A stretch of DNA of 64,000 nucleotides from Candidatus Micrarchaeia archaeon (GCA_041665945.1 JBAYHU010000001.1:31863-95862); one strand, 5' to 3'. Positions 1 to 53,953 are shown, numbered from the stretch's first letter. Translations and numbers: made by a program. The notes: generated by a model not told the origin, from the letters alone.

Positions 1-2
1 TG

Positions 3-1307
3 TTGACAATGGTAAGCGTCGCCCACTCCGGCATTTTCACCGACATCGGGACATTGTTCGGGAATTCCAAGACGCTTGAGTGCACTGTCACCGAGTCCCC
101 GCTGGTCTGGATAGTGCTTGCGTGGATTTCGCTCGTTCTGGGCGTGTTTTTGAACGCAATCGTCACCATGCTCGGCGGCGTTTTGGGCGGGCAGAAATAC
201 AACCAGTTCCTCAAGGGCGGGCTCTGGGGCATAGTGGAAACCGCCGCCATACTCGCCATTTTCTCGGGCGCTTTTGCCGGCCTGCAGGAATACGGGACCG
301 CGAACCTCGACACCGCCAGGGCGTATTCCACGGTAATCAGAAACACGGTGATATTTGACTTCACGCTCATGATGGCGGGCAGCACCGCGCTCTCGTTCAT
401 ATCAAGGCAGGCGCCCAACGTCCGCATATCCGCGTTCAAGGCGTTCCCGCTTGGCTTCCAGTTCGCGCCCATGTTCCGCCCGCTGTTCGACGGGCTGGGG
501 ACGATGGTGCAGATGCTCGCGGCCGCGATTGCCGAGTGGGTGGCGCACGAATTCGTGCTGTGCTTCATCAAGACGAGCATGCTCTCGCTTCTCCTGCCAA
601 TAGGCATATTCCTGCGCGCGTTCGGGTTCAAAGGGGCAGGCAACGCGCTTATGGGGCTGGCAATCGCGCTTTACTTCATCTACCCCTTCCTGATGATACA
701 GGTCGGCGAGATGCTGAACAACTATTTCGCGCGGACGAACGAGCCTTGGGACCCGCTGGAAAGCTGGCCGTCATGCGCGGGCGCGGCCCCGATTTGCTGC
801 ACTACGACGAGCGGCAGCGTGATACCCGCGAACACAAGCGCGCTTTTCATCAAGAACGGGCCGAACTGGGAGAGCGACCTGAACCAGCGGCTGGATGCAA
901 TCGAGGTCGGAAGGGGGGACATATTCCTCTCGATTGACAAGCGCGTGCCGGTTGTCGGGACAGGGACGTTCTGCACCTACAACACCGGGATTTCGCGCTC
1001 GTATGGCAGCCTGCTTGACGGGCTTGGCGTGCTTGGCTTCTGGACGCTGCCGATAGGCGCGGGGCTTGTAGGGCTTGCCAACCTCGCCATACTCAAGTGG
1101 GTGAATCTGAGCTGGGTGGCGTTCTCGCTTGCGCCACTCATGATTGCGTTCCTGCTGAATTCGGCATATGACATCGTGTTCTTCGTTTTCATCGTGAGCA
1201 TAGTCCTGCCGCTGATGATGGTGTTCATAACGATTACCATGGCAAAGGAAATCGCGAAAGTTCTCGGGACCGAGATAGACTTGAGCGCGCTTGAGAAGCT
1301 GATATGA
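3..1307 (+). CDS. Polytopic membrane protein, paralog 1 of a tandem triplet (uncharacterised family). The 5' end may lie outside the window.
   Basis: ORF runs to the window edge. It has multiple hydrophobic segments. It shares the motif FLRAFGFKGAGNALMGLAIALYFIYPF and the C-terminal tail TEIDLSALEKLI with the two downstream ORFs. A Cys-rich, probably extracytoplasmic insert is present. Confidence 0.5.
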   Translation: MTMVSVAHSGIFTDIGTLFGNSKTLECTVTESPLVWIVLAWISLVLGVFLNAIVTMLGGVLGGQKYNQFLKGGLWGIVETAAILAIFSGAFAGLQEYGTANLDTARAYSTVIRNTVIFDFTLMMAGSTALSFISRQAPNVRISAFKAFPLGFQFAPMFRPLFDGLGTMVQMLAAAIAEWVAHEFVLCFIKTSMLSLLLPIGIFLRAFGFKGAGNALMGLAIALYFIYPFLMIQVGEMLNNYFARTNEPWDPLESWPSCAGAAPICCTTTSGSVIPANTSALFIKNGPNWESDLNQRLDAIEVGRGDIFLSIDKRVPVVGTGTFCTYNTGISRSYGSLLDGLGVLGFWTLPIGAGLVGLANLAILKWVNLSWVAFSLAPLMIAFLLNSAYDIVFFVFIVSIVLPLMMVFITITMAKEIAKVLGTEIDLSALEKLI

Positions 1308-1321
1308 TATCCGCAGGATGA

Positions 1322-2377
1322 TTGGAAGGTTTTGCAATGGTTTCGATGGCCGAGGAAGTGTGCGCCCCGATACTGGGGAACCCGCAGGGAGTGGTGGCTG
1401 GGTTCGGCATACTCGGCGACAACTGGGTGGTACTCACCTTCCTCGCGCTTTTCTGCTCCCTTCTTTCGCTCGCAGTACTTTACATGGTGGCGAACTTCCT
1501 GCGCAACCAGACGCTCCTTGCATGGATAAAGTTCGAGCTTTTCCAGATACTGGGAACCGCGACGGTATTCGCATTCGCCATACTCTGGGCGTCCGGCATG
1601 TGCACGTTCGACATGGGCTTCTTGAACGACCAGTACCTGCACAGGAACATGTACGATATCGTGGATGAATATTTCTCCTTCCTGCGAGGAGTGGGCAACG
1701 TGCTTTTCGGGTACATGATGTACATGTCCAAGATAATCACGCTTCTGCAAAAGGTTACCTATTTCTCAAGCCCGCTCGGGCTTGGAATGACCGACAATCC
1801 GCTTGACTCCATGGGGCAGCTCAATTCCATACTCTTCTTCGCCGTGGGCGGCTACATCACATCATACATGATGCTGGACTTGCAGTTCAAGATAATGGAA
1901 TACATGGCGTTCGCCACCATGCACTACCTCTTCCCGTTCGGGGTTTTCTTCAGGGCTTTTGAGCCCACTCGCGGGTTCGGCGGCGCTCTCATCGGGCTGT
2001 CGCTGTCATTTTTCCTGTTCTATCCCATGCTGGTCGTGTTCAACCATTATATCATATACAACAGCCTGGAGGAGTCCAGGACCGACCTTGAAGCCGAGAT
2101 GGGCAATGCAAACGCGCACGTGGTGAACGGAGAGGTGCCGGACGAGCAGGCGCTCAAGAACTCCATAGACGACCTCGCAAACGTGATGAACGTGCAGAAG
2201 ATGACCGAGGGCATGGGCTCGGCGACCGTGTTCCTGTTCAAGCCCCTTGCACTCTACCTCATAGCCGCCGTGGCGCTGCCGGTAATAAACTTCGTGGTGC
2301 TTGTTGAATTGACAAAAGGGCTCACCTCCTTCCTCGGCGACGAGGTCGACATCACCAACCTGACAAGGATGATTTGA
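1322..2377 (+). CDS. Polytopic membrane protein, paralog 2 of the tandem triplet.
   Basis: About 8 predicted TM segments. Contains FFRAFEPTRGFGGALIGLSLSFFLFYP and the C-terminal tail DEVDITNLTRMI. Lies 14 bp after paralog 1. Confidence 0.55.
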   Translation: MEGFAMVSMAEEVCAPILGNPQGVVAGFGILGDNWVVLTFLALFCSLLSLAVLYMVANFLRNQTLLAWIKFELFQILGTATVFAFAILWASGMCTFDMGFLNDQYLHRNMYDIVDEYFSFLRGVGNVLFGYMMYMSKIITLLQKVTYFSSPLGLGMTDNPLDSMGQLNSILFFAVGGYITSYMMLDLQFKIMEYMAFATMHYLFPFGVFFRAFEPTRGFGGALIGLSLSFFLFYPMLVVFNHYIIYNSLEESRTDLEAEMGNANAHVVNGEVPDEQALKNSIDDLANVMNVQKMTEGMGSATVFLFKPLALYLIAAVALPVINFVVLVELTKGLTSFLGDEVDITNLTRMI

Positions 2378-2435
2378 TGGATATGGCGCACGCATTTTCG
2401 GAAGGGAAGGCCGGCGCAAGCGCAGCAAGGATGAT

Positions 2436-3476
2436 TTGATGGACGTCAACGTGTCATTTCCGCTCGGATGGGAAAGCCTGTGCGTAATCTGCGCGCTCAT
2501 AGGATTCTTCATGGCAGTATTGGTCCACATGGCGGCAAAGGCGATGGGCTTGCAGAACCTCGACATGTGGGCGAAGTCCGAATACATGCAGGCAGGCGCG
2601 AGCTTCCTGATAATCCTCCTTGCGATAGGCATGGTGCAGGCAGGCGGCAGGATTGCCACGGAAATCACCTCGAAGCTCGCTGAGGCGAGCGACAATGTCG
2701 AGCTTCTCGGCGCGGCTGCAAACCCCGTGAATATCGGGGACCCGGTGCGCATCGCCAAGGCATATCTCACCGAAGGGCCGCTGAAATGCGAGGTAAACAT
2801 GTACAAGTGGGCAAGGAGGCTCAACACCTGGGCTGAATTCTGGAACGGGATAAGCATAAGCGTGGGCAATGTGGAGGGCACGGGCGGAGGGTTCTTCTAC
2901 GCAGGAAGGGTGAGCGTCACCCACTACGCCGCGCAGAGCATCACCTACCTCGCGCTGTTCCACTACATACAATACCATATGCTGAACTTCTCGCAGTACG
3001 TGATGCTCCAGATTTTCCTTCCAATCGGCATAATACTGAGGACATTCGCGCCAACGCGCGGCACGGGCGGGTTCATGATTGCATTCGCGCTGGGTTTCGC
3101 GTTCGTGTTCCCAATAAGCTATCTTTTCATAGTGGCGATGATGCCTTCCACCGCGATTGCCTGCAGCCAGATAGGCGTGCAGGCGGATTACATCTCAAAC
3201 GCGGGGAAGGCGGGGTTTGCCGAGGAATTCCTTGTGGACGACCCCTGCCCGAACAACGCGGGCGCGACAGTCATGAACATGATGAAGTCCGAGGGGGACA
3301 CCACCATGCAAAGCGAGCTTACCCGCCTCCAGCGCTCGGTCGGGCAGCTGTATTTGCAGGCAGTGTTCTACCCAATGGTCTGCCTCATAGTCACGTTCAC
3401 GTTCATCAGGCAGACATCCTCGCTGTTCGGCGCGGACCTTGCGGAAATAGGCAGGGGCTTGATAAAAATCATATAA
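2436..3476 (+). CDS. Polytopic membrane protein, paralog 3 of the tandem triplet.
   Basis: Contains ILRTFAPTRGTGGFMIAFALGFAFVFP and the C-terminal tail ADLAEIGRGLIKII. A GC hairpin gcggca-gccaa-tgccgc lies just after the stop at 3477-3493. Confidence 0.55.
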   Translation: MMDVNVSFPLGWESLCVICALIGFFMAVLVHMAAKAMGLQNLDMWAKSEYMQAGASFLIILLAIGMVQAGGRIATEITSKLAEASDNVELLGAAANPVNIGDPVRIAKAYLTEGPLKCEVNMYKWARRLNTWAEFWNGISISVGNVEGTGGGFFYAGRVSVTHYAAQSITYLALFHYIQYHMLNFSQYVMLQIFLPIGIILRTFAPTRGTGGFMIAFALGFAFVFPISYLFIVAMMPSTAIACSQIGVQADYISNAGKAGFAEEFLVDDPCPNNAGATVMNMMKSEGDTTMQSELTRLQRSVGQLYLQAVFYPMVCLIVTFTFIRQTSSLFGADLAEIGRGLIKII

Positions 3477-3614
3477 GCGGCAGCCAATGCCGCCCGAATC
3501 CCCCACTATATAGTATATAGCAGGGCGGCAGGGGGAAATAACGGGCTGGCGTTGGCAAAAAGTGTCTGCTTTAAAAATCATTCAGCATTAACTACCGATT
3601 CGTGGGAGATTCGC

Positions 3615-4772
3615 ATGTCGTTTGAAATACCCAACCCGTACAAGGGGAATTACAAGCTCCTTATCATAATCCCGCTGCTTTTGGTGGCGGTTTCGCTGTT
3701 TTTCATCCCAAGCATAAAGAAGGGGGTGGACTTCAAGGGCGGCACGCTCGTCACCATGCAGTCGGACGTGCCTGCGGACACGCAAAAGCTGGCGGAAGCG
3801 CTGGAAGCGAACGGATTCTCCGTTTCCTCGGCAAAATCCCTCCAGAACCCCAAGGGATACGAGATAGAAGTCGAAATTGAACGGGACGAGAACCTCACGC
3901 GCACGGACGAGCTCAAGAGCGAATTTTTCAACACTGTCGAGGAGGTCTCGCGCCTTGAAGCCGACGCCTCGACCGCCAACAACTCAAGCTCGGAAGCGCA
4001 GGTGAAATATGCAGACGCCAAGGCGAAAATAGACGTCATTTCAAACGGCATTTTCGCAATCGCGGGCATGCCGCAGGACGCGGAAAAAGCGAACAGCACC
4101 AACGCGCTCAAGGCGAGCGTGAATGGCGCATACAGGAAGATAATAGACGGCAACTCCGAGCGGCTCTCCGCGGTGCTGTCCAAGGAAGTGCCATATGAGA
4201 GCGCAAGTTTCAACGAAGTGTCGGCGTCCCTTTCGGCGAAATTCCTCGAAAAGGCGCTCAACGTCGTCATGTACTCCACCATACTCGTCTGCATAGTGGT
4301 TTTCCTGATTTTCAGAAGCATTGTCCCGAGCGCGGCGGTCATCGTGGGCGCAGTGTGCGACATAATAATCGCGCTTGGCGCAATGGGGATGTTCGGGATC
4401 CCGCTCACCCTCGCGTCCTTCGCGGCGCTTTTGATGCTCGTGGGCTTCTCGCTTGACACCGACGTCCTGCTTACAATGCGCGTGATTAAGCGCAAGGAGG
4501 GCGACGCGAGGACACGCGCATATGAGGCGATGAAGACCGGAATGACAATGAGCATGGCTCTCCTGCTTTCCTTCATTTGCCTGTTCATACTCGCATCACT
4601 GACGCACATCAACACGTATTACGAGATTTCAGCCGTGGCAATCGCGGGGCTTGTGGGCGACCTGTTCGCAACATGGCTCCTCAACGCGATAATCGTGCTG
4701 AACTACGCGGAGAAGCATGGGCACTCCGGCGAATCCGAGAGGGGCATAATCGCCTCGCTGTTCTCCAATTAG
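3615..4772 (+). CDS. secF: Protein-export membrane protein SecF.
   Basis: Has the GVDFKGGT motif after an N-terminal TM and a C-terminal TM bundle. ATG at 3615 chosen (ORF track begins at 3552). Confidence 0.8.
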   Translation: MSFEIPNPYKGNYKLLIIIPLLLVAVSLFFIPSIKKGVDFKGGTLVTMQSDVPADTQKLAEALEANGFSVSSAKSLQNPKGYEIEVEIERDENLTRTDELKSEFFNTVEEVSRLEADASTANNSSSEAQVKYADAKAKIDVISNGIFAIAGMPQDAEKANSTNALKASVNGAYRKIIDGNSERLSAVLSKEVPYESASFNEVSASLSAKFLEKALNVVMYSTILVCIVVFLIFRSIVPSAAVIVGAVCDIIIALGAMGMFGIPLTLASFAALLMLVGFSLDTDVLLTMRVIKRKEGDARTRAYEAMKTGMTMSMALLLSFICLFILASLTHINTYYEISAVAIAGLVGDLFATWLLNAIIVLNYAEKHGHSGESERGIIASLFSN

Positions 4773-4780
4773 GGATTTTT

Positions 4781-6487
4781 ATGATTTCAATAAACGAGCT
4801 TGTGAGGGGGGCGAAAAGCCGCGAGGTCATCGCAGTCTTCGCGTTCACGCTTTTCGCGTGCCTGCTGATGTACCTTGACAAGCCGATGGGCATCCCGATT
4901 TACATAGTCTCCATATTGCTTGTCGGCATCGCGTCGGTGTTTTTGCACAAGGACAGCCTGCGCGTAGCCGCGCTCCTTGCAATCGTGTTCCTGTCGGCGT
5001 TTTCCATCTGGTCCAACGGCGTCAAGTTCGGGATTGACTTTTCGGGAGGAGTGAGGATACCCATCCTTCTTGAGAAGTCCGTGGATTCCGTGACAATGGA
5101 GGAGATGGTCACCACCATCAAGACGCGCGCGGCGTCCTTCGGGCTTACCGAAGTGAAGGTCCGCCCCATCGGCGACTCGGAAATCTACGTGGAGCTTCCG
5201 CAGAGCAACCCCAAGCTCGTGAAGGACGTCGAGGACATCCTCTCCCAGCAGGGCATATACAACGGCATAGTGGACGGGAAAGTCGCGATAAGCGGGGATG
5301 AGATATATTCCGGCTCGATTTACCGCGTGCCCTCGCAATACCTGCAGGGCGCGGACTGGGGAGTCAGCTTCACCGTGACGCAGGCGGGCGCAAGCAACTT
5401 CGCGAAAGTGGCGAAGGGCAAGGCGAACTATCCGCTTTACATGTTCCTCGACCGCCCGCAGAACGCGATAATAATACTCAACGAAAGCGAGCTCATGTCC
5501 GACGCGAAGAAGCAGGGCGTGCCCATGTCCAAGTCAAAGGCGCTCGACCTTGCAACCTCTGCGATGAGGATGGCGGGCGACGACATACCGGTTTATCTCG
5601 AAGAGGACCTCGCGAAGAATTTCACGCTTGTCCCCAGGGACAACATGACCAAGGCGATTGTCAACAACGCAAGCCCGCTTGCCGAAAAGCTCGCGCAGGC
5701 GGGATTCGTGGTGGTCGGGAAGGCATCCGAGGACATGACGCCCCAATACGTGGTGTCCCCCTCCTCGCCCGCGTCGGACGCGGTGACGACGTGGAAAGCG
5801 GTCGGGCTCCTCTCGTCCCCGCGCCTCGTGGCGTCGGTAACGGAAGGCGTGCCCAATTACGCTTACACGATAAACGGCCCTGCGCAGGGCGATACCTCGA
5901 CTGCCAAGCTGCTTGACGCGCAGAAGAAGGAGCGCGAACTCGAGTCGCTTCTCAAGGGAGGCGCGCTTCCGGTGCACATAACAATCGGCTCGAAGACAAT
6001 CGTGCCCGCCCCGCTCGGCGAGGAGTTCCTGCGCCTGTCGCTTATCGGCGTGGCATTCGCGCTGGTTACGATTTCGCTCATGGTGGCAATCCGCTACAGG
6101 CACCTCAACATAGTCGTGCCCATGATGTTCATCAGCTTCTCGGAAATCCTGATACTGCTTGCGATATTGGGCGCATTCACAATCGACCTCGCCGGAATGG
6201 CGGGAATCCTCGCCGCAATCGGCGTGTCCGTGGACGCGCAGATTGTCGTGACGGACGAGCTTCTCAAGAAGGAGGAGGAGACCAAGAAGAGGATTGACAA
6301 GGCGTTCGCAATCATCACCACATCGGTAATGGTCGCCGTGGTCGCCATGCTGCCCCTGCTGCTTCTTTCCGGGCTTGTGGAAATCATCGGCTTTGCGACA
6401 TCGACGGTGCTGGGCTCGCTCCTCGGACTGTTCATCTCGCGCCCGGCATACGGCGCCATCGCTGAGAGGATGTTCGAGAACAGCTAG
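4781..6487 (+). CDS. secD: Protein-export membrane protein SecD.
   Basis: Has the GIDFSGG motif, a large periplasmic-type domain and a C-terminal TM bundle. ATG at 4781 lies directly after the secF stop; the upstream part of ORF 4577 overlaps secF and was discarded. Confidence 0.8.
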   Translation: MISINELVRGAKSREVIAVFAFTLFACLLMYLDKPMGIPIYIVSILLVGIASVFLHKDSLRVAALLAIVFLSAFSIWSNGVKFGIDFSGGVRIPILLEKSVDSVTMEEMVTTIKTRAASFGLTEVKVRPIGDSEIYVELPQSNPKLVKDVEDILSQQGIYNGIVDGKVAISGDEIYSGSIYRVPSQYLQGADWGVSFTVTQAGASNFAKVAKGKANYPLYMFLDRPQNAIIILNESELMSDAKKQGVPMSKSKALDLATSAMRMAGDDIPVYLEEDLAKNFTLVPRDNMTKAIVNNASPLAEKLAQAGFVVVGKASEDMTPQYVVSPSSPASDAVTTWKAVGLLSSPRLVASVTEGVPNYAYTINGPAQGDTSTAKLLDAQKKERELESLLKGGALPVHITIGSKTIVPAPLGEEFLRLSLIGVAFALVTISLMVAIRYRHLNIVVPMMFISFSEILILLAILGAFTIDLAGMAGILAAIGVSVDAQIVVTDELLKKEEETKKRIDKAFAIITTSVMVAVVAMLPLLLLSGLVEIIGFATSTVLGSLLGLFISRPAYGAIAERMFENS

Positions 6488-6493: not shown

Positions 6494-7129
6494 TCAGGGC
6501 TTTTTCTTTTTTCTTCCTTCTTTTCCCCATTCTCTTTTCTTCTGCTGCAAAAACGAGTAGAGCGAGTTGAGCATGGGCACGATGTAGAAGGGAAGCACGA
6601 CGCCGACGATTGCGCCTGTTATTTCGCGCAGAAGGTTGCTGCTCTCGCGCAAGCCGATTAGCTGCGTGCCCCCGTCAAGCGCGATTGGCACGGCTGCCGT
6701 GGCGATAATCCACTTGTTGGGCCAGCCCTCACCCTCGATTTTCTGGACAAAGGGCAGGATGAGCAGCCCGAGAAACATGGCGAGGTAGATGCCCATGTCG
6801 CGGGCGCAGACCGGGAATTTGTAGCCGGTTTCAGCGCCCCGCGTGATTGTTGTCGCGTGGGTGGATGAGAAAGAATCGGATTCCATGCAGTCTGCGATTG
6901 AAAGTTTGCCGTCGTTGGATTTGAAAAGGCATAGCGAGCGGGAAGTGAGCTGGTGGCACGTCGGCGCGAATGCGGTGTAGAGAAGGTCGCCTGTTCCCTT
7001 GTTGGCAAAAGCCGCGAAAGGCGTGAGGAAAATCAGCCCGTTGAGAAGCAGAAGCGCCACGAGGGCGAGGAGATAGGGAATCTTTGAGCCTGCCATGATG
7101 GGGTTGGCATGCCGCAGTCTTTTAAACAT
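6494..7129 (-). CDS. DUF2085-family membrane protein.
   Basis: Contains the CHQLTSRSLC motif typical of DUF2085, plus TM segments. Confidence 0.55.
   Translation of the reverse strand: MFKRLRHANPIMAGSKIPYLLALVALLLLNGLIFLTPFAAFANKGTGDLLYTAFAPTCHQLTSRSLCLFKSNDGKLSIADCMESDSFSSTHATTITRGAETGYKFPVCARDMGIYLAMFLGLLILPFVQKIEGEGWPNKWIIATAAVPIALDGGTQLIGLRESSNLLREITGAIVGVVLPFYIVPMLNSLYSFLQQKKREWGKEGRKKKKP
7121..7128 (+). promoter_or_regulatory. TATA-like box (tttaaaca) about 30 bp upstream of tRNA-Arg.
   Basis: AT-rich octamer at archaeal promoter spacing from the tRNA 5' end at 7154. Confidence 0.35.
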
Positions 7130-9038: not shown

Positions 9039-9157
9039 CGGGCTCGGGGGGATTTGAACCCCCGGCTTTCTGGTTTCTTCAGCCATGCATCTGCTACAAA
9101 CAATTTCGTAGGAGTGTTAAAAGCCAGACACTCTAGGCCAAGCTGAGTTACGAGCCC
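9039..9157 (-). tRNA. tRNA-Lys(UUU) with a 43-nt intron after position 37.
   Basis: Hand-folded on the minus strand. Acceptor GGGCUCG/CGAGCCC. D-arm ACUC/GAGU. Anticodon stem UCUGG/CCAGA, loop CUUUUAA. T-arm GGGGG-UUCAAAU-CCCCC. Discriminator G, poly-U after it. Confidence 0.7.
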
Positions 9158-23078: not shown

Positions 23079-23711
23079 CATAGCGGATTGCACTGCAACT
23101 GAATGCCTCAAGGCGTTAGTTGGCGTCAAGGCGGCTGAAATCAGGCTTGAGACCATTTCCAAGATAGACGAAACAGCCGTAAAATGGATTCTCGGCTCCA
23201 AGGCAAAAATTGTCGCGACCTGCAGGCCGGGCAAGATGCCTGACGAGAAGAGGAAAAAGCTTCTCTTGGCTGCGATTGCAGCTGGAGCGGCATATGTTGA
23301 TGTGGAAGTGGATGCTCCGGACGAGTACAAGCAGGAAATTGTGGAAGCCGCCAATGCAAAAGGTTGCGAAGTTATCGTTTCGTTCCACGACCACGAGAAA
23401 ACGCCTGTGCGCGAGGAATGGAGCAGACTATTGACTGGTGCTTCAATTCCGGCGCGGACATCGCAAAGATTGCCTGCAAGGTGAATTCCAAGGCGGAAGC
23501 CGCGAGGCTGCTTGGCTTGCTGGATGATGAGCGCGAGCTTATCATCGTTGGCATGGGAGACGAGGGGAAAATCGTGCGCATAGCCGCGCCATTGCTTGGA
23601 AGCAGGATTGCATATGTTTCGCAGGGCAAGGGGAAGGAGACTGCAAGCGGGCAGATGGCTGCCGAGGAGCTTGAGAGAAAGATGAAGGAGATTTCAAATG
23701 GCAAGGACTAG
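23065..23711 (+). pseudogene. aroD: 3-dehydroquinate dehydratase type I, interrupted by a single-nucleotide frameshift near 23415-23435.
   Basis: Frame 1 (23065-23484) encodes the N-terminal two-thirds ending HDHEKTP. Frame 3 (23364-23711) encodes the remainder, IDWCFNSGADIAKIA...IIVGMGDEGKIVRI. A 1-nt indel joins them. Confidence 0.6.
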
Positions 23712-25014
23712 GATATTCGCAAGCACGGGAAAGCCCATCATGCATAGCATAAGCCCGCAGATGCACAATGCCGCATTCCACGAGCTTGGCATGGATGCTG
23801 TTTACATCAGATTGGCGGCTGCGAACGCGGATGCCGCGCTTCTGGCTGCAAGGCAGATTGGAATGGACGGGCTGAATGTCACAACGCCATACAAGGAGGA
23901 GTTTGTGCGGCTGATGGATAACGTGGATGAAAGCGCTGCAAGCGTGGGCGCTGTGAATACCGTCAAATTGGAGAAAGGGAAGGCAACAGGATTCAATACG
24001 GATGGGAACGGAGTGTCGGGCGCGCTTATCGGCAATGGAATTGAGATAAGCGGGAAAAAGGCAGTGGTTCTTGGCGCGGGAGGCGCAGCAATGGCAGCAG
24101 TGAATGCGCTTTGCAGCAACGGGGCGGAAGTGATTGTGGCAAACAGGACACACCGGAAGGCAAAGGCATTGGCAGAAAGGTTCGGATGCGGTGCGTGTTC
24201 GCTTGAGGAAAAGGAGCTGGGGGCTGCACTTGATGGCGCGGACATTGTTGTTTCTGCTCTAAGCACGCACGAGCGGGTGGTTCCAAGGGGAATGCTTGGA
24301 AAAAACACGGTTGTGCTTGAAGCAATATACGCAAAGGGCACTGCACTTGCGGCGGATGCAAAGGAAAACGGCTGCCGCGTGCTTGAGGGAAGGGAATGGC
24401 TCTTGTGGCAGGGCGTGAAGGCATTTGAGATATTCACGGGAAGCAAGGCTCCGGAAAAAGCCATGCAGGCTGCGATTGCGAAAAAGGAGGCGCACAAGGG
24501 CAATATCGCGCTTGTCGGTTTTATGGGAAGCGGAAAGAGCCGCATTGCAAGGGAAATTTCCAAGCTTGCCGGCATGGAAAGGATTGACACTGACGAGAAA
24601 ATCAGGGAAATTGCCGGAAAGAGCATCAACGATATTTTCAAGCAGGATGGCGAGAGGGCATTCCGCGAGCTTGAAAGGCAGGCGATTGCCAATCTGCAAG
24701 GCGTTCACGGGAACGTGATTTCCTGCGGTGGCGGGGCGGTGCTTGACTCGCGCAATGTCGCTGTGCTGAAGGAAAATTGCACGATTGTCTGGCTTTGGGC
24801 AAGTGAGGAGGAGACGTGCCGCAGGCTGGAAGGGGAGAAAGGCAGGCCATTGCTTGATGCGAAAGACAGGAAGGAAAGGATTGGGGCGCTTCTGGCAGAG
24901 AGGATTCCTGCATACGCCACCTGCGCGGACTTGGTTGTCGGCACGGAAGGCATGAGTGCGAATGATGTTGCGAAGTTGATTATTGATGAAACAGGCATTG
25001 CCGGGAAAAATTAG
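23698..25014 (+). CDS. aroE-aroK: Fused shikimate dehydrogenase and bacterial-type (P-loop) shikimate kinase.
   Basis: N-terminal AroE motifs (NVTTPYK, GAGGAAMA). C-terminal AroK motifs (GFMGSGKS ... LID domain). Confidence 0.8.
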   Translation: MARTRIFASTGKPIMHSISPQMHNAAFHELGMDAVYIRLAAANADAALLAARQIGMDGLNVTTPYKEEFVRLMDNVDESAASVGAVNTVKLEKGKATGFNTDGNGVSGALIGNGIEISGKKAVVLGAGGAAMAAVNALCSNGAEVIVANRTHRKAKALAERFGCGACSLEEKELGAALDGADIVVSALSTHERVVPRGMLGKNTVVLEAIYAKGTALAADAKENGCRVLEGREWLLWQGVKAFEIFTGSKAPEKAMQAAIAKKEAHKGNIALVGFMGSGKSRIAREISKLAGMERIDTDEKIREIAGKSINDIFKQDGERAFRELERQAIANLQGVHGNVISCGGGAVLDSRNVAVLKENCTIVWLWASEEETCRRLEGEKGRPLLDAKDRKERIGALLAERIPAYATCADLVVGTEGMSANDVAKLIIDETGIAGKN

Positions 25015-27325
25015 GGGCAGCCTTCAGGCGCCTTCTTCAAAGAGCATGGCACAGCGCGCCGTGGCAGCCGCGGCAATGGCAGAAGGCATATCCGAGATAA
25101 GGAATTACCCTGATTGCGACGATGCGCTTGCGGCGATTGAGTGCGCAAGGGCGCTTGGGGCAGGAGTAAGCAGCGCGAATGGCAAGCTGATTGTCGCGGG
25201 CAACGGGAAGCCGGACGGCTCGGAGTTGCATTGCGGCGAGTCGGGGCTTTGCCTTCGCATGTTCACGCCGATTGCCGCGCTTTCGGATACGCAAACCGTG
25301 ATTACCGGCAAGGGCTCGCTTCTTTCCCGCCCTGTTGGCATGGCGCAGCAGCCGCTTGAGGCGCTTGGCGCTTCATGCGAGACGAACAGAGGCAAGCCGC
25401 CAATCACAGTCATTGGCCCGATTCACGGCGGAAAACTGGAGGTGGACGGCTCGGCAAGCTCGCAGTTCATAACGGGATTGCTGATGGCGCTTCCGCTGTG
25501 CAGGGAAAATTCCGTGATTAGTGTTTCAAACCCGAAAAGCAAGCCATACCTGCGGATGACTGTTTCGCTTCTGGAAAAATTCGGAGTAAATGTGGAATGC
25601 AATGCCTCGATGGACAAGTTCGTAATCAAAGGCGGGCAGAAATACAAGCCAACCGCCCATACCGTAGAGGGGGACTGGTCCGCTGCCGCGTTCCTGCTTG
25701 TTGCAGGCGCGATTGCAGGGAAAGTCCGCGTGCGCGGGCTTGGCATGGATTCGCTTCAGGCTGACCGCGCGATAGTGGATGCGCTGAAGCTTGCAGGAGC
25801 AAAAGTCAGGGTGAACGAGGATTGTGTGGGTGCCGAGAAGGCGGAATTGAAGTGTTTCGAGTTCGATGCCACGGACTGCCCAGACCTGTTCCCGCCGCTT
25901 GTGGCGCTTGCCTGCAATTGCAGGGGGAAGAGCAGGATTTCAGGCGCGCTTCGCCTGAAAGGCAAGGAGAGCGACAGGTCTGCGGTGCTTGTTTCCGAAT
26001 TCGCGAAGATTGGCGGCAAAGTCAGCATAAGCAATGGCGGCGACGTGATGGAAATTGAGGGCTGCGCGCTTTCCGGCGGGAAGGCGGACTCGCACAATGA
26101 CCACAGGATTGCCATGGCGCTTGCGATTGCGGCGCTGAATTCGCAGAAGGGCGTGAGCATAGAGGGGGCGGAGTGCGTTTCAAAATCATACCCCAAGTTT
26201 TTCGAGGACTTGGAAGCTTTGCAGGAAGGAGGGAGAAGCATGGACCCATTTTCATTCGGGAATAATTTCCGCATAACCGCATTCGGAAGCAGCCACGGGC
26301 CGCACGTGGGCGTGGAGATAGAGGGCTGCCCTGCCGGCGTTGAAGTGGGCGAGGCGGACGTGCAGATGTGGCTTGACAGGAGAAAGCCCGGCGCAAGCCC
26401 GCTTGCCTCTGCGCGCAAGGAAGAGGACCGCGTGATAGTGGAGAGCGGGATTGAGAACGGGAAGACCACGGGCGGGAAGATGCGGATGATTGTGAAGAAC
26501 ACAGATACGAAATCGAAGGATTACGAAAAGTTCGGCGAAGTTCCGCGCCCGGGGCACGCGGATTACCCGTCCATTGCCAAATACGGAAGCGCGCAGGCAG
26601 GCGGGGGTTTCTTCTCCGGAAGGATGACAGCGGCATTTGTCATGGCGGGGGCTGTTGCAAAGAAGCTCCTTGAGGCAAGGGGAGTGCAAACGCTTGCGTT
26701 CTCGCGGCAGATTGGAAAAGTGCGCGATGAAAAGGGCACCAAGGATGCGGACGTGCGGAAGAACGTTTACCAGAACGCTGTTCGGGCGGCTGACCTGTCG
26801 CTTGCGGAAGCGATGCAGAAGGAAATCGAATCCGCAAAAGCAGAGGGGGATTCTGTCGGCGGAGTGGTGGAGTGCCGCGTAATCGGGCTTCCGGCAGGGA
26901 AGGGGGAGCCGATGTTCCTGTCCATTGAGGGCAGGCTTTCGCAGGCAATGTTCGCAATTCCCGCGGTGAAGGGAGTGGAATTCGGCGCGGGGTTTGCCGC
27001 TGCGGGAATGCTGGGCTCGCAGAATAACGACCAGTTCGTTGCTTCCGGCGGGAAAATCGGCACGAAGACGAACAATGCGGGCGGGATACTGGGCGGGCTT
27101 TCGACCGGAATGCCGGTTGTGTTCAGGGTGGCGTTCAAGCCGACCTCCAGCATTTTCAAGCCGCAGGCGACTGCGAATTTGAAGACCATGAAGGAGGAGA
27201 AGCTCGTGATTGCGGGAAGGCACGACCCGTGCATTGCCATCCGGGCTGTACCCGTAGTGGAATGCGTGGCTGCTGTATGCGCCGCGGATTTGATGCTTGC
27301 AGAAGGGGAAGCAAAGGGGGAATGA
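24983..27325 (+). CDS. aroA-aroC: Fused EPSP synthase and chorismate synthase.
   Basis: N-terminal about 410 aa EPSPS (KSMAQRAVAAAAMAEG, LRLKGKESDR). C-terminal about 365 aa chorismate synthase (FGSSHGP, GGRSSARETA-like motifs). Confidence 0.8.
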   Translation: MMKQALPGKIRGSLQAPSSKSMAQRAVAAAAMAEGISEIRNYPDCDDALAAIECARALGAGVSSANGKLIVAGNGKPDGSELHCGESGLCLRMFTPIAALSDTQTVITGKGSLLSRPVGMAQQPLEALGASCETNRGKPPITVIGPIHGGKLEVDGSASSQFITGLLMALPLCRENSVISVSNPKSKPYLRMTVSLLEKFGVNVECNASMDKFVIKGGQKYKPTAHTVEGDWSAAAFLLVAGAIAGKVRVRGLGMDSLQADRAIVDALKLAGAKVRVNEDCVGAEKAELKCFEFDATDCPDLFPPLVALACNCRGKSRISGALRLKGKESDRSAVLVSEFAKIGGKVSISNGGDVMEIEGCALSGGKADSHNDHRIAMALAIAALNSQKGVSIEGAECVSKSYPKFFEDLEALQEGGRSMDPFSFGNNFRITAFGSSHGPHVGVEIEGCPAGVEVGEADVQMWLDRRKPGASPLASARKEEDRVIVESGIENGKTTGGKMRMIVKNTDTKSKDYEKFGEVPRPGHADYPSIAKYGSAQAGGGFFSGRMTAAFVMAGAVAKKLLEARGVQTLAFSRQIGKVRDEKGTKDADVRKNVYQNAVRAADLSLAEAMQKEIESAKAEGDSVGGVVECRVIGLPAGKGEPMFLSIEGRLSQAMFAIPAVKGVEFGAGFAAAGMLGSQNNDQFVASGGKIGTKTNNAGGILGGLSTGMPVVFRVAFKPTSSIFKPQATANLKTMKEEKLVIAGRHDPCIAIRAVPVVECVAAVCAADLMLAEGEAKGE

Positions 27326-27329
27326 GGAT

Positions 27330-28388
27330 ATGAAACTCGAGGAATTGCGCGGAAAGGTCGACCTGATAGATGCGGAAGTCATCAAGCTCCTTGCAGCGAG
27401 GATGGAACTCGCGCTTCGCACGAGGAAGCTCAAGGATGGCGTGGTGGACAGCGGGCGCGAGAAGGAGGTAATGGAGCGCGTGCGAAAGTCGTCCGTGGGG
27501 CTTGTGTCACCGGAATTCTCCGAAAAATTGTTCAGGGAGATAATCGCGGAATCGAAAAAGCTTCAGGATAAAAACCCCGTTCTTATCGGATTCCAGGGCG
27601 AACACGGGGCGTACGGCGAAATGGCTGTGCGGGCTTATTCCCATTCGGCGATACCCATTTCCTGCAAGGAGTTCACGGATGTTTTCTCGGCTGTTGAGAA
27701 GGGGCAGCTTGACTTCGGAATCGTGCCAGTGGAAAACTCGCTTGAGGGCGCGGTAACGCAGGTGAACGACCTTCTGGTCGAAACAACGCTCCAGATTGTC
27801 GGCGAACTTCGCGTGCCGGTGCACCACTGCCTGTTGTCATTGCCTGACGCGGATTACCATGACATACGCGTGGTGTATTCGCACCCGCAGGCGCTCGCGC
27901 AGTGCAGGGGTTTCATAGGCAGGAACAAGCTTGAGCCGCGCCCGTATTACGACACGGCAGGGGCTGCGGAGATGCTTGCCAACGAGCGGCCCAGGGCGGC
28001 TGCGGCGATAGCGTCGAAACTGTGCGCCGAGCTTTACGGCTTGGACGTGCTCAAGGAGAATATCGAAGACCACGAGTCCAACTCCACGAGGTTTGTGGTG
28101 CTTGCAAGGGAGAAGCCGGAAAAGAAGGGCAACAAGTGCTCGATAATCTTCTCCACCTCCCACAAGGCAGGCTCGCTGTTCTTGGTGCTCGGGGCGTTTT
28201 CTGAAGCCGAGATAAACCTCACCAGAATCGAATCCCGCCCTATTCGGAGCGAACCGAAGAAATACGCGTTTCTCCTCGACTTCCAGGGCGCGGATACCGA
28301 TTCCAAGGTGGTCGCTGCGATGAAGAAGGTGAAGGAGGAGACCTCGATGCTCAAGTTCTTGGGCTGCTACGATGAGGCGAAAGAATAG
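27330..28388 (+). CDS. pheA: Bifunctional chorismate mutase / prephenate dehydratase (P-protein).
   Basis: N-terminal CM helix-bundle, the PDT domain (ESRP motif region) and a C-terminal ACT domain. Confidence 0.75.
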   Translation: MKLEELRGKVDLIDAEVIKLLAARMELALRTRKLKDGVVDSGREKEVMERVRKSSVGLVSPEFSEKLFREIIAESKKLQDKNPVLIGFQGEHGAYGEMAVRAYSHSAIPISCKEFTDVFSAVEKGQLDFGIVPVENSLEGAVTQVNDLLVETTLQIVGELRVPVHHCLLSLPDADYHDIRVVYSHPQALAQCRGFIGRNKLEPRPYYDTAGAAEMLANERPRAAAAIASKLCAELYGLDVLKENIEDHESNSTRFVVLAREKPEKKGNKCSIIFSTSHKAGSLFLVLGAFSEAEINLTRIESRPIRSEPKKYAFLLDFQGADTDSKVVAAMKKVKEETSMLKFLGCYDEAKE

Positions 28389-43144: not shown

Positions 43145-43219
43145 AATGGCACCTAAGTGTTAAGTAGAATAAATGTGTGGGGAAACAAATAAAAAGAGAC
43201 AACAGAGCCGGACTCGGCG

Positions 43220-43243
43220 TCAGGAGAAGATTTCGCGCAAGTC
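43220..43243. repeat. Direct repeat, copy 1 (tcaggagaagatttcgcgcaagtc).
   Basis: 21 of 23 positions identical to copy 2 at 44876-44899. On the minus strand it would encode ...DLREIFS*, identical to the C-terminus of gene 44876-45427. Confidence 0.6.
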
Positions 43244-43293
43244 GGAGAACCGATATAAATTTTCATGTAGAAGATGGCTCGGGAAGAGGGAAA

Positions 43294-44823
43294 ATGCGCG
43301 CTCTTCCCGGAGATGGGCAAATGTTCCTGTTTCAGATTGGTTTTAAGACCGGCAAAACGACTGAAATGGTGGAGAACACCTTGGTCAAGGGAAAGACCGC
43401 GACTTCATACATCGGCGACAAGTTCAACTTCACGCTCAAACCCAACAGCGACGTCGTCGTCTCCGCAAGGGGGGAGACTTACTATAGCAATTCGCAGAAC
43501 GACAAGAACGTGGTTTCAAGGACGCAGATGTTCGGCATCGGCATTGAAGCGGACAGCAAAAAATTTGAGATTGCTGGGAACACGTGGAAGGTCATCGGCA
43601 CGAGCGACTTCCCGAAAAGCATGACGATAAAATCAGAAGGCGGGCAAACCGTAGTTCTGGAAGACGGCAAGAGGATAAACCTCGAGGCGGCAAACGGAAA
43701 GAACAAGGACTGGAAAGTGGCGTTCGCCAAAACCGACAACATATACGACGTTTACCAGAACAAGTCAAACGGGACAGAGGAGCGGGTGTGGGTATACCGC
43801 GATGGCAACAACGAGAAATGCCTGCCCGGCGACGGGCTGAACCTCCCCGCCTATTTCGGGGGGAAGTTCACATACGACGGGCTTGTAAACAACGAGAAAT
43901 ATCCGCTAACAGTAAAGGTGCTGAAGTCAGACACGTATGAACTGGAGTCCACCGCATCCCACCGATCTGTCACAGGACCCGCAATAGAATTCACCGCAGA
44001 GACGCCGGGCTACATTGATGGCTACAGTGGCATCGAAGGCAGCACTACCACTCATCGGGTACAAAAAGCATTGCTGGTTTTTGCTGAGGATGGCACAATC
44101 CCAGCCATATTCCTAAAAGATAATGCCGACAAATACAGCGAGGGTGGTTTTAATCCGGGAATGCTGTCTGGTTCGCTGGATTACATTAGCATTGGCTGGG
44201 GTAAATCCGAGGTCAGAATCCGTGAATTGGCAAGGCCCAGCACAAAAAACCAGGCAGGAAGCGAAGTGGCGTTAGATATCCCGATAAGTGAAATGCGCAA
44301 CAGTAACGGAACACGGGAACTGATACTCGCCGGGCCCAAATACACTGGTATTGGGCAGACACAGCCCTTTAATCTCGAAACAGGATTCATAACGGAGCGG
44401 GGAAGCGAAATTTCCTCCTGGGGCGAAAAATCCTGCAACATTTTCATAAACTGCGGCAGTGTAGGCGAAAAGTTCGGCATTGCCAAGACAAAGTGGACGC
44501 TGGAGGATGGCCCAACCACCACCGGCATCAAGGATATCGGAACGCCAGTGCCGACGGACTTCCAGCTGAAGCAGAACTACCCCAACCCGTTCAACCCGGC
44601 AACCACGATACCCTTCACGATGAAGAAGGACGGGAACGTGAAAATCAAGGTGTACAACACGCTCGGGCAGGAAATAGCCACGCTTGCCAACGAGCCGCAT
44701 GTTGCAGGGCAGCATTATGTCAGGTTTGACGGCAGCAACTTTGCCTCGGGCGTGTACCTTACCACGCTGGAAATTGACGGACAGCTGGTCGGCAAGGGAA
44801 TAAAGATGAACCTCGTGAAGTAG
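43294..44823 (+). CDS. Protein with a C-terminal bacterial T9SS type-A sorting domain (Por_Secre_tail-like).
   Basis: C-terminus QNYPNPFNPATTIPF...VKIKVYNTLGQEIATL...GVYLTTLEIDGQLVGKGIKMNLVK. No N-terminal signal peptide was evident. ATG at 43294 follows a TATA-like gatataaatttt. Confidence 0.6.
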   Translation: MRALPGDGQMFLFQIGFKTGKTTEMVENTLVKGKTATSYIGDKFNFTLKPNSDVVVSARGETYYSNSQNDKNVVSRTQMFGIGIEADSKKFEIAGNTWKVIGTSDFPKSMTIKSEGGQTVVLEDGKRINLEAANGKNKDWKVAFAKTDNIYDVYQNKSNGTEERVWVYRDGNNEKCLPGDGLNLPAYFGGKFTYDGLVNNEKYPLTVKVLKSDTYELESTASHRSVTGPAIEFTAETPGYIDGYSGIEGSTTTHRVQKALLVFAEDGTIPAIFLKDNADKYSEGGFNPGMLSGSLDYISIGWGKSEVRIRELARPSTKNQAGSEVALDIPISEMRNSNGTRELILAGPKYTGIGQTQPFNLETGFITERGSEISSWGEKSCNIFINCGSVGEKFGIAKTKWTLEDGPTTTGIKDIGTPVPTDFQLKQNYPNPFNPATTIPFTMKKDGNVKIKVYNTLGQEIATLANEPHVAGQHYVRFDGSNFASGVYLTTLEIDGQLVGKGIKMNLVK

Positions 44824-50467: not shown

Positions 50468-53400
50468 TTAAGAGCATCCGGTGGTTTCCCCGCAATCGAC
50501 ACATACTTGGCACGAGCCGTTCTGCTTGACTTTCATGGAGCCGCATGCCGAGCACTGCGCGCCTGTGAAGCCCTGCGCCTTTGCGGACTTCGCCTTGTGC
50601 TCGTACTCGTCGGTTTCCCGCTCCTCCTCGGAAATCTCCTGCCGCTCGGGCTCGATGAGCTTCACCTGCGATTTCTGCTCTTCCACATGGGGGACGGGTG
50701 CGGGGCCGTGCGAGTCCCCGTTCACAGTTTTCACGTGAACGAAGTCCTGCCTGCCAAGGTACTCGTAGCCAAGCACGCGGAACACGTAGTCGATTATCGA
50801 GGTCGCGTTCTTTATCGCCTCATGCCCTGTCACAACTCCCGCGGGCTCGAAGCGCGTGAAGGTGAACGTGTCCACGAATTCATCCAGCGGCACGCCGTAC
50901 TGCAGTCCCTTGCTTACCGCAATGGCAAAGCAGTTGAGAAGCGAGCGGTAGCCCGCGCCCTCCTTGTACATGTCGATGAATATTTCGCCGATTGTGCCGT
51001 CCGGGTATTCGCCGGTCTTGAGATAGACCTTGTGCCCGCCCACGCGCGCCTCCTGTATGAAACCCTTGCGGCGGGTGGGAAGCTTCTTGCGCGAGAGCCT
51101 GCCGACAATCTTGGACTGCAATTGCGCGGGGCCGAAGGACTCGTCGATTTCCTCGCCCAAGCCGAGAAGCTGGGCAAGCTCGTCCTCGTCCACGTCCGCA
51201 GTCGCGTTGAGCGGCTGGGAAAGTTTGCTGCCGTCGCGGTAAAGCGCGTTGCTCTTCAGCATGTGCTTCCACGAGAGCATGTATGCCTCCTTGATGTCCT
51301 CGATTGACGCGTCGGAGGGCATGTTTATCGTCTTTGAAATAGAGCCTGTGATGAACGGCTGCGCGGCAGCCATCATCTTTATGTGCCCGAGGTAAGAGAT
51401 GAAGCGCGTGCCTTTCTTGCCGCACTTGCTCGCGCAGTCGAAGACCGCGTAGTGCTCGGGCGAAAGGTGAGGGGCGCCTTCGAGCGTCATGCTCCCGCAG
51501 ACGTATTCATTCGCCTCCTCTATCTGCTGTTTCGTGAAGCCGAGCTTGGAGAGCAGGTCGAACTTGGGATTATCCATCTCCGCGTCGGTGAATCCGAGAC
51601 GGCGCAGGAAGTCATCGCCAAGCGAGTACTTGTTGAACGCGAAGCGGATGTCGAACGCCTTGGGAAGCCCTGCTTCAGCCTTCGCAATCTTGTCTGCGGG
51701 GAAGCCCTTTGCCCCAAGCGACGCGGCGTTTATGTGCGGGCAGCCAGTGAGCGTGCCGTGCCCCATTGCGTAAAGCTCGATTTCCCGCACCTGCGAGGAG
51801 TTGTAGCCGAGCTTGACAAGCGCCTTTTTCACCGAGGCGTTGACTATCTTGAAGTAGCCGCCGCCTGCGAGCTTCTTGAATTTCACTATCGCGAAGTCGG
51901 GCTCGATTCCCGTTGTGTCGCAGTCCATCTGAAGCCCGATTGTGCCTGTGGGCGCGATTACTGTTACCTGCGCATTGCGGTAGCCGTATTTCTCGCCAAG
52001 CGAGTAGGCGCGGTCCCAACTCTCCCTTGCCGCCTGCGTGAGGTAGCCGGGGCAGTATTTCTCTTCTATGCCCACGGGCTTTGCAGTCAGCCCCTCATAC
52101 TCGTTTGCAGCCGTATTGTACGCCGCGCGGCGGTGGTTGCGTATCACCCGGAGCATGTGCTCACGGTTGCGCTCGTATGCTAAGAAGGGCGAAAGCTCCC
52201 GCGCCATTTCCGCGGAAGTCGCGTAGGACTCGCCGCACATTATGGAGGTGAGCGCGCCGCAGATTGCCATCCCTTCCGGGCTTTCGTACGGGACGCCCAG
52301 CATCATGAGCACCGTGCCCATGTTGGCGTAACCCAATCCGAGCGTGCGGAATTCGAAGCTTTTTTTGGCGATTTCCTTTGCAGGGAACTGCGCCATGAGG
52401 ACGGAGATTTCAAGCACGACCGTCCAGAGGCGGGTTGCGTGCCGGTATGCCTCGATGTTGAACGCGCCAGTGGATTCGTCGAGGAATTTGGCGAGGTTGA
52501 TGCTGGCGAGGTTGCATGCCGTGTCGTCGAGGAACATGTATTCCGAGCAGGGGTTGGACGCGTTGATGCGCCCGTCAACAGGGCAGGTGTGCCACTCGTT
52601 GATGGTGTCGTCGTACTGCACGCCCGGGTCGGCGCACGACCACGCGGCATAGGCGATTTCGTCCCACAGGTCGCGGGCTTTCATCTTGCGCATGACGCGC
52701 CCGTCCGTCCTTGCAAGAAGGCTCCATTCCGCGTCGTTCTCCACTGCCCAGATGAAGCGGTTGGAGATGCGCACGGTGTTGTTGCCGTTCTGCCCGGATA
52801 CCGTGACGTATGCCTCGGACTCGTAGTGCGTGTCGAATACGGGAAAATCGATTTTTTCCTTGCCCTGCTTGGCAAGCGAGAGCGCGCGGAACACGTAGTT
52901 GAGCGGCACTTCCTTGGCAAGAGCCTGCACGACCGCGAGCTTTATCCTCTCGTTTTTCAGGTCAGTGGATTGCTCCTCGCGGGCGACTTTCATTATCTTG
53001 TTGAGGTGCTTTCCGCAGGATTTGCTCCCCGCCACCATTGCCGCGACTTTCATCTCCTCGCGCATCTTCCAGTTCACGAACTGCTCGATGTCAGGGTGGT
53101 CGACGTCGACTATGACCATTTTCGCGGCCCGGCGCGTCGTCCCGCCGGATTTTATCGCGCCTGCCGCGCGGTCGTTTATCTTGAGGAATGACATCAGCCC
53201 CGAGGAGATTCCGCCGCCTGAGAGCCGCTCGCCTGCGCCGCGGAGCGCGGAGAAGTTCGTGCCCGTGCCCGAGCCGTACTTGAACAATCGCGCCTCGCGC
53301 GTAACCAGGTCGAATATGCCTCCGCTGTTCACCAAGTCGTCGCGGACGGACTGGATGAAGCAGGCATGGGGCTGTGGGTGGGTGTATGCGTCCTCGGACA

Positions 53401-53953
53401 CCTTGATTTCGCCTGACTGCGGGTCGGCGTAATAGTGCCCCTGCGCGCTGCCCTTTATGCCGTATGAGTATGCGAGCCCGGTGTTGAACCACTGCGGGGA
53501 GTTGGGAGATGCCATCTGGTGGAGGAGCATGTAGGAGATTTCGGCTTCGAATGACTCGGCGTCGGCTTTGGACGCGAAGTATCCGTATTTCTCCCCCCAG
53601 TGCCGCCAGCAGCCTGCCATGCGCCGCACGACCTGCCGCACGGACTTCTCGCTTCCGGTCATGGGCTTGCCGTGCATGTCCTTCATGGGGCTGCCGTTGC
53701 GGTCGTAGAGGGGCACGCCCGCCTTCCTGAAGTATTTCTGCGCGAGTATGTCGGTTGCGACCTGTGACCAGGAGCGGGGCACTTCCACGTCGGTCATTTC
53801 AAAGACGACAGAGCCGTCGGAATTGCGGATTATGGAGGGGCGGAATTCGTATTCGGCTGCGTCGAGCGGGTCAGTGCCTTCGGTAGTGAATAGGCGTTTT
53901 ACCTGCAAGCCGCCTTGGCGGCTCTTCTGCTCCGACACAGTCGCTACTTCCAT
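50468..53953 (-). CDS. nrdJ: Class II (adenosylcobalamin-dependent) ribonucleotide reductase.
   Basis: RNR barrel motifs (NPCSEY, active-site Cys) and a C-terminal zinc ribbon CSACG...CVDCG. Start moved to MEVATV (53953). Confidence 0.85.

Follow-up and report, generated by a model that had tools for sequence, protein, structure and literature searches.

Background

VirB6 is the inner-membrane subunit that forms the stalk base, or protochannel, of type IV secretion systems (T4SSs). In Agrobacterium tumefaciens its N-terminus lies outside, a large external loop follows the second transmembrane (TM) helix and the C-terminus is cytoplasmic. The archaeal Ced and Ted systems are made of a VirB6-like channel (CedA or TedA), a VirB4-like ATPase (CedB or TedB) and a pilin (CedA1 or TedC). 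DPANN archaea abound, their genomes are tiny and they often rely on other cells, yet almost nothing is known of their envelope machines. This work focuses on a stretch of 64,000 nucleotides from Candidatus Micrarchaeia archaeon (GCA_041665945.1, JBAYHU010000001.1:31863-95862), which we call the window, and on the operon of paralogous membrane proteins with which it opens. We believe these proteins probably form an envelope complex, which may be of the VirB6 type.

DotA of the Dot/Icm system is a VirB6-like pentamer, and a layout of TMI/TMII plus HH1-5 has been described for the VirB6 class (10.1101/2025.06.23.660953). The components of Ced and Ted are T4SS homologs without mutual sequence similarity (PMC9905601). 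Rickettsia carries five tandem VirB6 paralogs (PMC2653234), and VirB6-4 of Anaplasma has giant extensions (PMC7648143). We found no paper in the searched literature that treats Micrarchaeota and VirB6 together, nor any description of the operon in the genomic and cultivation papers on Micrarchaeota. The six-paralog operon is undescribed in that literature.

An operon of six paralogs

A sequence-only reading of the window had reported three tandem paralogous membrane proteins directly upstream of secF and secD. It counted three only because the window begins inside the set. On the longer contig of the same genome (L001) three more co-oriented paralogs, of 511, 316 and 437 aa, stand directly upstream of the first open reading frame (ORF), and the ORFs of the window are the last three genes (4, 5 and 6) of a compact six-gene operon, roughly 7 kb long. 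All six genes share a common motif and a common architecture. They overlap or lie at most 61 bp apart, and 138 bp separate gene 6 from secF. A gene for a 2169-aa protein, outside the window, lies upstream of the operon in divergent orientation.

The sextuplet is not peculiar to this genome. One genome per GTDB species was scanned with patterns of the ORF2 type, which returned 56 loci; because the patterns are biased towards that type, absence from other genomes cannot be read from this number, and the scan does not settle presence in the Micrarchaeales (ARMAN-2, Mia14, A_DKE), in ARM-1 or outside the phylum. Nearly all of the 56 loci are labelled Micrarchaeota, Micrarchaeia, Anstonellaceae, Burarchaeum or Fermentimicrarchaeum, and a few are labelled 'ainarchaeum', 'Woesearchaeota' or plain 'archaeon'. 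Members were counted with a hidden Markov model (HMM) of the family in 59 distinct loci. Exactly six tandem members are present in every one of the 48 complete loci, that is, those not cut by a contig end, and no locus has more than six. The sequence-only reading had asked for conservation and synteny in related genomes, and the six-gene order is indeed fixed in all 48. The family is also large. When 1.84 billion representative proteins were searched exhaustively with its profile, 3053 clusters (at 50% identity) passed E<=1e-3 and 2164 passed E<=1e-10. Two other profile searches brought up so many close relatives that they contributed neither new taxa nor names; the sources that do carry a name are all Micrarchaeota or bear a closely allied label.

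The protein at each position finds its best match at the same position in other loci in 1800 to 2222 of about 2256 comparisons per position, so the six-fold duplication is older than the divergence of the sampled lineages. Gene order and copy number have stayed frozen since that duplication, and no copy is dispensable. Such freezing is the signature of an obligate hetero-oligomer and not of redundant or substrate-diversified copies; each paralog is kept as its own orthologous group throughout the 48 complete loci, as is looked for in a hetero-oligomer. The earlier suggestion of a hetero-oligomeric membrane complex is therefore the natural reading, because every paralog is retained in fixed order, and we think it quite probable that the six proteins form a hetero-oligomeric envelope complex. 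Its proposed link to secretion through Sec is not supported, as discussed below. An operon whose six membrane paralogs are non-redundant and never change order among the complete loci probably encodes a central envelope machine.

The operon genes of the window, their conserved segments and the two genes that follow are as follows.

1 to 1307, plus strand: position-4 paralog (ORF1); its 5' 16 codons, for the signal peptide, lie off the window; Cys-rich extracellular loop
594 to 641, plus strand: signature motif LPIGIFLRAFGFKGAG of the position-4 paralog, end of TM3 plus cytoplasmic turn
1257 to 1304, plus strand: C-terminal tail KVLGTEIDLSALEKLI of the position-4 paralog, conserved, cytoplasmic
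1337 to 2377, plus strand: position-5 paralog (ORF2), 346 aa, WCT52_00125; AlphaFold2 pLDDT 83.8, pTM 0.77
1931 to 1981, plus strand: signature motif FPFGVFFRAFEPTRGFG of the position-5 paralog, which hhalign places onto the VirB6 GPxFI..T..F motif
2327 to 2374, plus strand: C-terminal tail SFLGDEVDITNLTRMI of the position-5 paralog, conserved, cytoplasmic
2439 to 3476, plus strand: position-6 paralog (ORF3), 345 aa, NCBI WCT52_00130; AlphaFold2 pLDDT 84.3, pTM 0.78
3018 to 3068, plus strand: signature motif LPIGIILRTFAPTRGTG of the position-6 paralog
3426 to 3473, plus strand: C-terminal tail FGADLAEIGRGLIKII of the position-6 paralog, conserved, cytoplasmic
3615 to 4772, plus strand: secF, operon neighbour in the window's clade only
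4781 to 6487, plus strand: secD, operon neighbour in the window's clade only

The three ORFs are where the sequence-only reading had placed them, and they are homologous. ORF1 was called at 3-1307 (434 aa within the window); the window start truncates it, and the full gene, at 8619-9971 of contig L001, encodes 450 aa with a signal peptide. ORF2 runs from 1322 to 2377 and has 351 aa if it starts at TTG, or 346 aa from the ATG at 1337; the shorter form is identical to NCBI WCT52_00125, from a metagenome-assembled genome labelled 'Candidatus Micrarchaeia archaeon'. ORF3 (2436-3476) has 346 aa, or 345 if started at the ATG at 2439. The gaps of 14 and 58 bp given earlier apply to the longest-ORF starts; with the called ATG starts they become 29 and 61 bp. 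BLASTP aligns ORF1 with ORF2 and ORF2 with ORF3 at 23-24% identity, and ORF1 with ORF3 at 38% across a core of 45 residues. The E-values for ORF1/ORF2, ORF2/ORF3 and ORF1/ORF3, as listed, are 2e-10, 7e-10 and 9e-6, so the paralogy is beyond chance. The motif and the C-terminal tail said to be shared by all three were located at the nucleotide level, the Cys-rich insert of the first copy is present and lies in the loop between TM4 and TM5, and secF and secD do follow the block.

Topology and conserved surfaces

Hydropathy, two AlphaFold2 models and the alignments agree on five TM helices per protein. Both models, of ORF2 and ORF3, are confident, with the predicted local distance difference test (pLDDT) and predicted TM-score (pTM) values listed above. 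The paralogs at positions 3 and 4 have a lipobox or a signal peptide, and in three family members (P0204, P0166 and P0198) a signal peptide and more than 300 aa of Cys-containing repeats are fused ahead of TM1. Since these signal peptides, lipoboxes and ectodomain fusions precede TM1, the N-terminus must be outside, and with five TM helices the C-terminus is then cytoplasmic. In the models the TM helices extend as 50-residue helices into what is predicted to be an extracellular helical bundle.

The strongest conservation is on the cytoplasmic side and the outer loops are variable. Three conserved elements share that side: an AWxKxE loop after TM1, the signature LPxGxxLRxFxPTRGxGG, which forms the turn between TM3 and TM4, and a C-terminal tail with the consensus (L/I)Gx(E/D)x(D/E)hxxhx(K/R)hh-COOH. 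The tail is found at positions 1, 3, 4, 5 and 6 and is absent at position 2 in all genomes compared. Outside, the TM4-TM5 loop is variable and often rich in Cys, and the outer loops may carry inserts. In a divergent lineage (L006/L007, 6573-12052, plus strand; proteins P0204, P0166 and P0198) the paralogs at positions 3 and 4 are enlarged to 1143 and 683 aa, with a signal peptide and repeated Cys-containing extracellular modules before TM1. Two giant genes come next there, one for 1307 aa (6% Cys, with a lipobox) and one for 2469 aa.

Comparison with VirB6

The sequence-only reading could not place these proteins in any family, and this remains true after database searches. The six paralogs match nothing in Pfam, NCBIfam or PHROG, and neither a single protein nor a profile finds a match among PDB sequences. 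A Pfam scan of 116 diverse members returned scattered noise and no recurrent family. The HMM scans were also the check proposed for a confident match to a characterized transporter or enzyme family, and there is none. The Ced models of NCBIfam are likewise unmatched by the six paralogs. Two of the 116 aligned members give weak matches to the Pfam family T4SS_pilin (PF18895; best E 0.005). The N-termini of VirB6 and CedA have been reported to be similar to their pilins (PMC9905601), and given that report the weak matches may be meaningful.

What similarity there is points to VirB6. Foldseek searches of the PDB with the ORF models are not significant (E 0.63-1.8, TM-scores 0.29-0.46), and TrwI (7o3v and 8rt9) and DotA (9ngy) recur among these sub-threshold matches; TrwI has the highest TM-scores, 0.39 and 0.46. 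Using a VirB6 profile made from eleven plasmid proteins, hhalign finds one local alignment with the family (score 24.2, P 0.022). It sets residues 186-228 of 346, which contain the family signature, onto the block GPiFI..T..fF..W (TrwI 168-209 of 342). This is the most conserved block of VirB6, and its Pro, Ile/Phe and Thr positions correspond to those of the family signature. Not one of 150 composition-preserving shuffles of the VirB6 alignment reached 24.2 (mean 15.1, standard deviation 2.7, maximum 22.9), and reversing the alignment gave 16.1. With sub-profiles of positions 2, 5 and 6 the top match is again this pairing of motifs.

The position of the motif and the topology agree with this pairing. 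The TM helix that holds the motif comes, in the paralogs as in VirB6, after a large external loop, and a short turn then leads to the next TM helix. The paralogs also have the VirB6 layout as a whole, with the N-terminus outside, a large external loop after TM2 and a cytoplasmic C-terminus. These signals are convergent but individually sub-threshold. In our opinion homology to VirB6 is plausible rather than demonstrated, and we lean slightly towards common ancestry.

Genomic context

The neighbours of the operon differ between clades, and three classes can be distinguished. In class A, the clade of the window, the operon is preceded by a giant gene and followed by secF, secD and an opposite-strand gene for a DUF2085 protein. 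In class B, a large second clade, Trm5 and LeuRS genes lie upstream and genes for a PIN protein, an RNA ligase and a methyltransferase lie downstream, which is a purely housekeeping setting. Class C is the Fermentimicrarchaeum clade (L030, which is CP058998, L036, L042, L044, L051 and L054; L046 and L053 also belong here but stop short of the region after the operon). In the six class C loci that include the downstream region, the operon continues directly, without a change of strand. The additional genes encode two paralogous proteins of about 271 aa, each with a hairpin of two TM helices and a cytoplasmic domain, a 512-aa P-loop ATPase, a small zinc-ribbon membrane protein, a coiled-coil protein and an 811-aa bitopic protein.

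The ATPase is the most informative of these. It matches AAA_10, HerA/DUF87 and the TraG P-loop in Pfam, and in NCBIfam it matches CedD (5e-19), CedB (5e-18) and the VirB4-like CD1110 (3e-15). Its scores against CedD and CedB, 65-68 bits, are far below the equivalog cut-offs of 600-700. In L036 (13574-16717, plus strand) the VirB4/CedB-like ATPase carries an intein with a LAGLIDADG homing endonuclease, and has 1047 aa against about 510 in its relatives. The accessory proteins of class C (271, 260 and 811 aa) were compared by hhalign with VirB2, B3, B5, B8, B9 and B10 of R388 and gave no signal, and we rejected these assignments.

The giant protein of class A has a signal peptide, a sequon-rich ectodomain of about 170 aa, one TM helix and more than 1400 residues rich in K, E and A that are cytoplasmic by topology. 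It matches nothing in Pfam or the PDB and lacks a Walker A motif. Given this build, we rejected the idea of a surface adhesin. Homologs lie near the operon in 18 of the 59 loci, and their placement varies. In clade A the gene is upstream in divergent orientation; in L005 and L006 it is downstream, convergent with the operon in the former and co-directional in the latter. Adjacency in three different arrangements suggests that the giant protein is functionally tied to the operon in the lineages that have it. Large size alone is no guide to membership in the system, and we do not count all large adjacent ORFs as members; many of them are LeuRS, PPDK, SMC or carbamoyl-phosphate synthase.

A candidate VirB6-type channel and its alternatives

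We propose that the six paralogs constitute a hetero-oligomeric envelope channel or platform of the VirB6 type, and we put the probability of this full statement at roughly 45%. On this proposal six different subunits would co-assemble in the cytoplasmic membrane into a single channel or platform. Its conserved inner face, made of the cytoplasmic loop and the tails, would serve as a docking site for a partner in the cytoplasm: the co-operonic VirB4/CedB-like ATPase in the Fermentimicrarchaeum clade, and perhaps the neighbouring membrane-anchored giant protein in the clade of the window. The outer face, which is variable, would extend into the envelope with its bundle and loops. The machine might then move a cargo of macromolecules through the membrane or build a surface structure. 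Its parallels would be the domesticated crenarchaeal Ced and Ted systems and, in Rickettsia, the array of five VirB6 paralogs.

If the proposal is right, the archaeal reach of T4SS relatives extends past Ced and Ted, this is the first VirB6 core of six paralogs, and its proteins become candidates for the unidentified complexes seen by cryo-electron tomography at contacts between Micrarchaeota and their hosts. In the micrarchaeon ARM-1 such work has found an unidentified envelope barrel of 21 nm that docks host nanotubes (PMC11329633). A bolder version would have a phylum-wide, chromosomally fixed conduit derived from a T4SS, a ring of six VirB6-like subunits of which five have an ATPase-docking tail, serve as the unidentified DPANN-side complex of cell-cell bridges (the ARM-1 barrel, for example) and as the route by which macromolecules are exchanged with partner cells. 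We regard this version as a long shot, and a relation between the six-paralog complex and the ARM-1 barrel is pure speculation.

Several results weigh against a VirB6-type channel. TrbL/VirB6 (PF04610) is unmatched by the 116 members even at E<=1, the family profile does not retrieve TrwI from the PDB sequences, and hhalign of the family against TrwI alone yields nothing. To the match with the VirB6 profile hhalign itself assigns a probability of just 2.2%, the pairing does not recur with sub-profiles of positions 1, 3 and 4, and the invariant Trp of VirB6 (W199 in TrwI) is aligned to a column of the family that is not Trp. The VirB4-like ATPase is co-operonic in one clade only, with none in the 64-kb window, in L001 or in the other loci. 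No counterparts of VirB2, VirB3, VirB5 or VirB8 were detected. The operon lies among housekeeping genes, and the organism of the window encodes shikimate and aromatic amino acid biosynthesis as well as other anabolic genes. This context does not imply a role in exploiting a host, and the system is not restricted to strongly host-dependent lineages.

The alternative that survives best is a lineage-specific structural complex of the envelope that takes no part in transport: an anchor or spacer for an S-layer or pseudo-periplasm, or a scaffold for shape or division that works with the giant protein. An extracellular helical bundle and variable outer parts, Cys-rich or Ig-like, would suit such a role, and so would the housekeeping surroundings. 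A giant neighbour with a small glycosylated ectodomain, one TM helix, more than 1400 cytoplasmic residues and no ATPase motif fits it too, as does the gene for a PMT-type glycosyltransferase upstream of the operon in the Fermentimicrarchaeum clade. Every similarity to VirB6 is sub-threshold, and how the S-layer is anchored in Micrarchaeum harzensis is explicitly stated to be unknown (PMC8975820), which we count in favour of this alternative. Against it, the most conserved parts of the proteins face the cytoplasm and not the envelope, a VirB4/CedB-like ATPase shares the operon in one clade, and the matches to TrwI and DotA are repeated, with a motif-on-motif alignment that exceeds its shuffled controls. 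We consider a purely structural complex unlikely, while taking it seriously. Even if the proteins turn out to be unrelated to VirB6, they are a large, conserved and wholly uncharacterized membrane protein family that defines a phylum.

A much poorer explanation is that the six are separate channels or transporters, each with its own substrate, which have stayed together merely as a legacy of tandem duplication. It is true that the proteins are polytopic with divergent external loops and that DPANN archaea need many imports. However, strict 1:1:1:1:1:1 retention in fixed order, 48 times out of 48 with no gain or loss, is unlike the behaviour of transporter families that have diversified in substrate. 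There is also no similarity to any transporter family, and five TM helices with long extramembrane helices are atypical of transporter folds. We give this explanation very little credence.

The least probable explanation is that the paralogs are an accessory of the Sec translocon and assist SecDF in export or in the biogenesis of membrane proteins. It rests on the operon standing directly 5' of secF-secD in the window and likewise in 14 of the 43 informative loci. Against it, that adjacency belongs to one clade (elsewhere the neighbours are LeuRS/Trm5, PIN/RNA ligase or the VirB4-like ATPase), the 138-bp gap before secF is wider than the spacing within the operon, and no similarity to SecY/E/G, YidC or SecDF was detected in the paralogs.

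The sequence-only reading had proposed to check whether homologs elsewhere also sit beside secDF. Informative loci are those with enough sequence downstream of the operon, and all 14 that have secF within 2.5 kb downstream are in the window's clade, so the link is clade-specific. The weak resemblance of the paralogs is to VirB6 and not to Sec components, and the supposed linkage to the translocon is not supported. We conclude that secF and secD are probably not part of the six-paralog system.

Other features of the window

The longest secD ORF, which begins at 4577, shares about 200 nt with the end of secF, but this long form is an artefact of start choice, as secD is called from 4781. The gene for the DUF2085 membrane protein (6494-7096, minus strand) is convergent to secD, and this arrangement is kept in 16 loci of the same clade. 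At 9039-9157 on the minus strand Rfam finds a tRNA (53.7 bits) that spans 119 nt for a model of 71 positions; ARAGORN reports no tRNA anywhere in the window. It is probably an intron-containing archaeal tRNA.

The plus strand encodes a fusion of shikimate dehydrogenase and shikimate kinase (23698-25014, 438 aa) and a fusion of EPSP synthase and chorismate synthase (24983-27325, 780 aa), and a chorismate mutase-prephenate dehydratase lies at 27297-28388. With these fused enzymes of the shikimate pathway and the chorismate mutase-prephenate dehydratase, this DPANN lineage appears to make aromatic amino acids. The 548-aa protein at 43177-44823 (plus strand) has a C-terminal match to Por_Secre_tail, the sorting domain of type IX secretion (E 1.8e-8), which is unexpected for an archaeon. 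A class II ribonucleotide reductase of 1214 aa at 50468-54112 (minus strand) matches the barrel domain in two stretches, a split that may reflect an insertion or an intein.

Comparison with known systems

The proteins of the VirB6/TrbL family, such as TrwI of R388, and DotA are among the closest known relatives in build. TrwI has 342 aa and our family about 346. A TM pair at the N-terminus, then a large external region and then long hydrophobic helices are shared with VirB6/TrbL, and so is a conserved TM-helix motif that contains Pro and leads into a short turn bearing a conserved Thr. In one clade the paralogs are also, like VirB6, associated with a VirB4-class ATPase. The differences are that the paralogs match no TrbL model in Pfam and lack the invariant Trp, that Micrarchaeota have six distinct paralogs while VirB6 is a homopentamer, and that the operon is chromosomal and core instead of being on a mobile element. 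Near it no VirB2, VirB3, VirB5 or VirB8-11 was detected.

Like Ced and Ted, the system would be an archaeal, chromosomally domesticated and minimal derivative of a T4SS; the parts of Ced and Ted have diverged too far to be picked up by ordinary sequence searches (PMC9905601). The best scores of the Fermentimicrarchaeum ATPase are with the CedD and CedB models. However, there is one CedA or TedA where Micrarchaeota have six paralogs, no pilin gene was recognized, and the ATPase reaches 68 bits against a cut-off of 600 and is missing from the operon in most clades, the window's included.

The rvh T4SS of the Rickettsiales (RvhB6a-e, four to five copies) offers a parallel for the multiplication itself. 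There too divergent paralogs of the VirB6 type stand in tandem, are inherited vertically in a reduced genome and are associated with very large proteins or extensions (PMC2653234, PMC7648143). The rickettsial copies have a recognizable TrbL/VirB6 domain and a full set of Vir genes alongside, whereas those of Micrarchaeota are short (300-500 aa), unrecognized by Pfam and six in number. For the fixed set of six, with each paralog kept as a separate orthologous group, the likeness is to obligate hetero-oligomers such as MCM2-7 and Rpt1-6.

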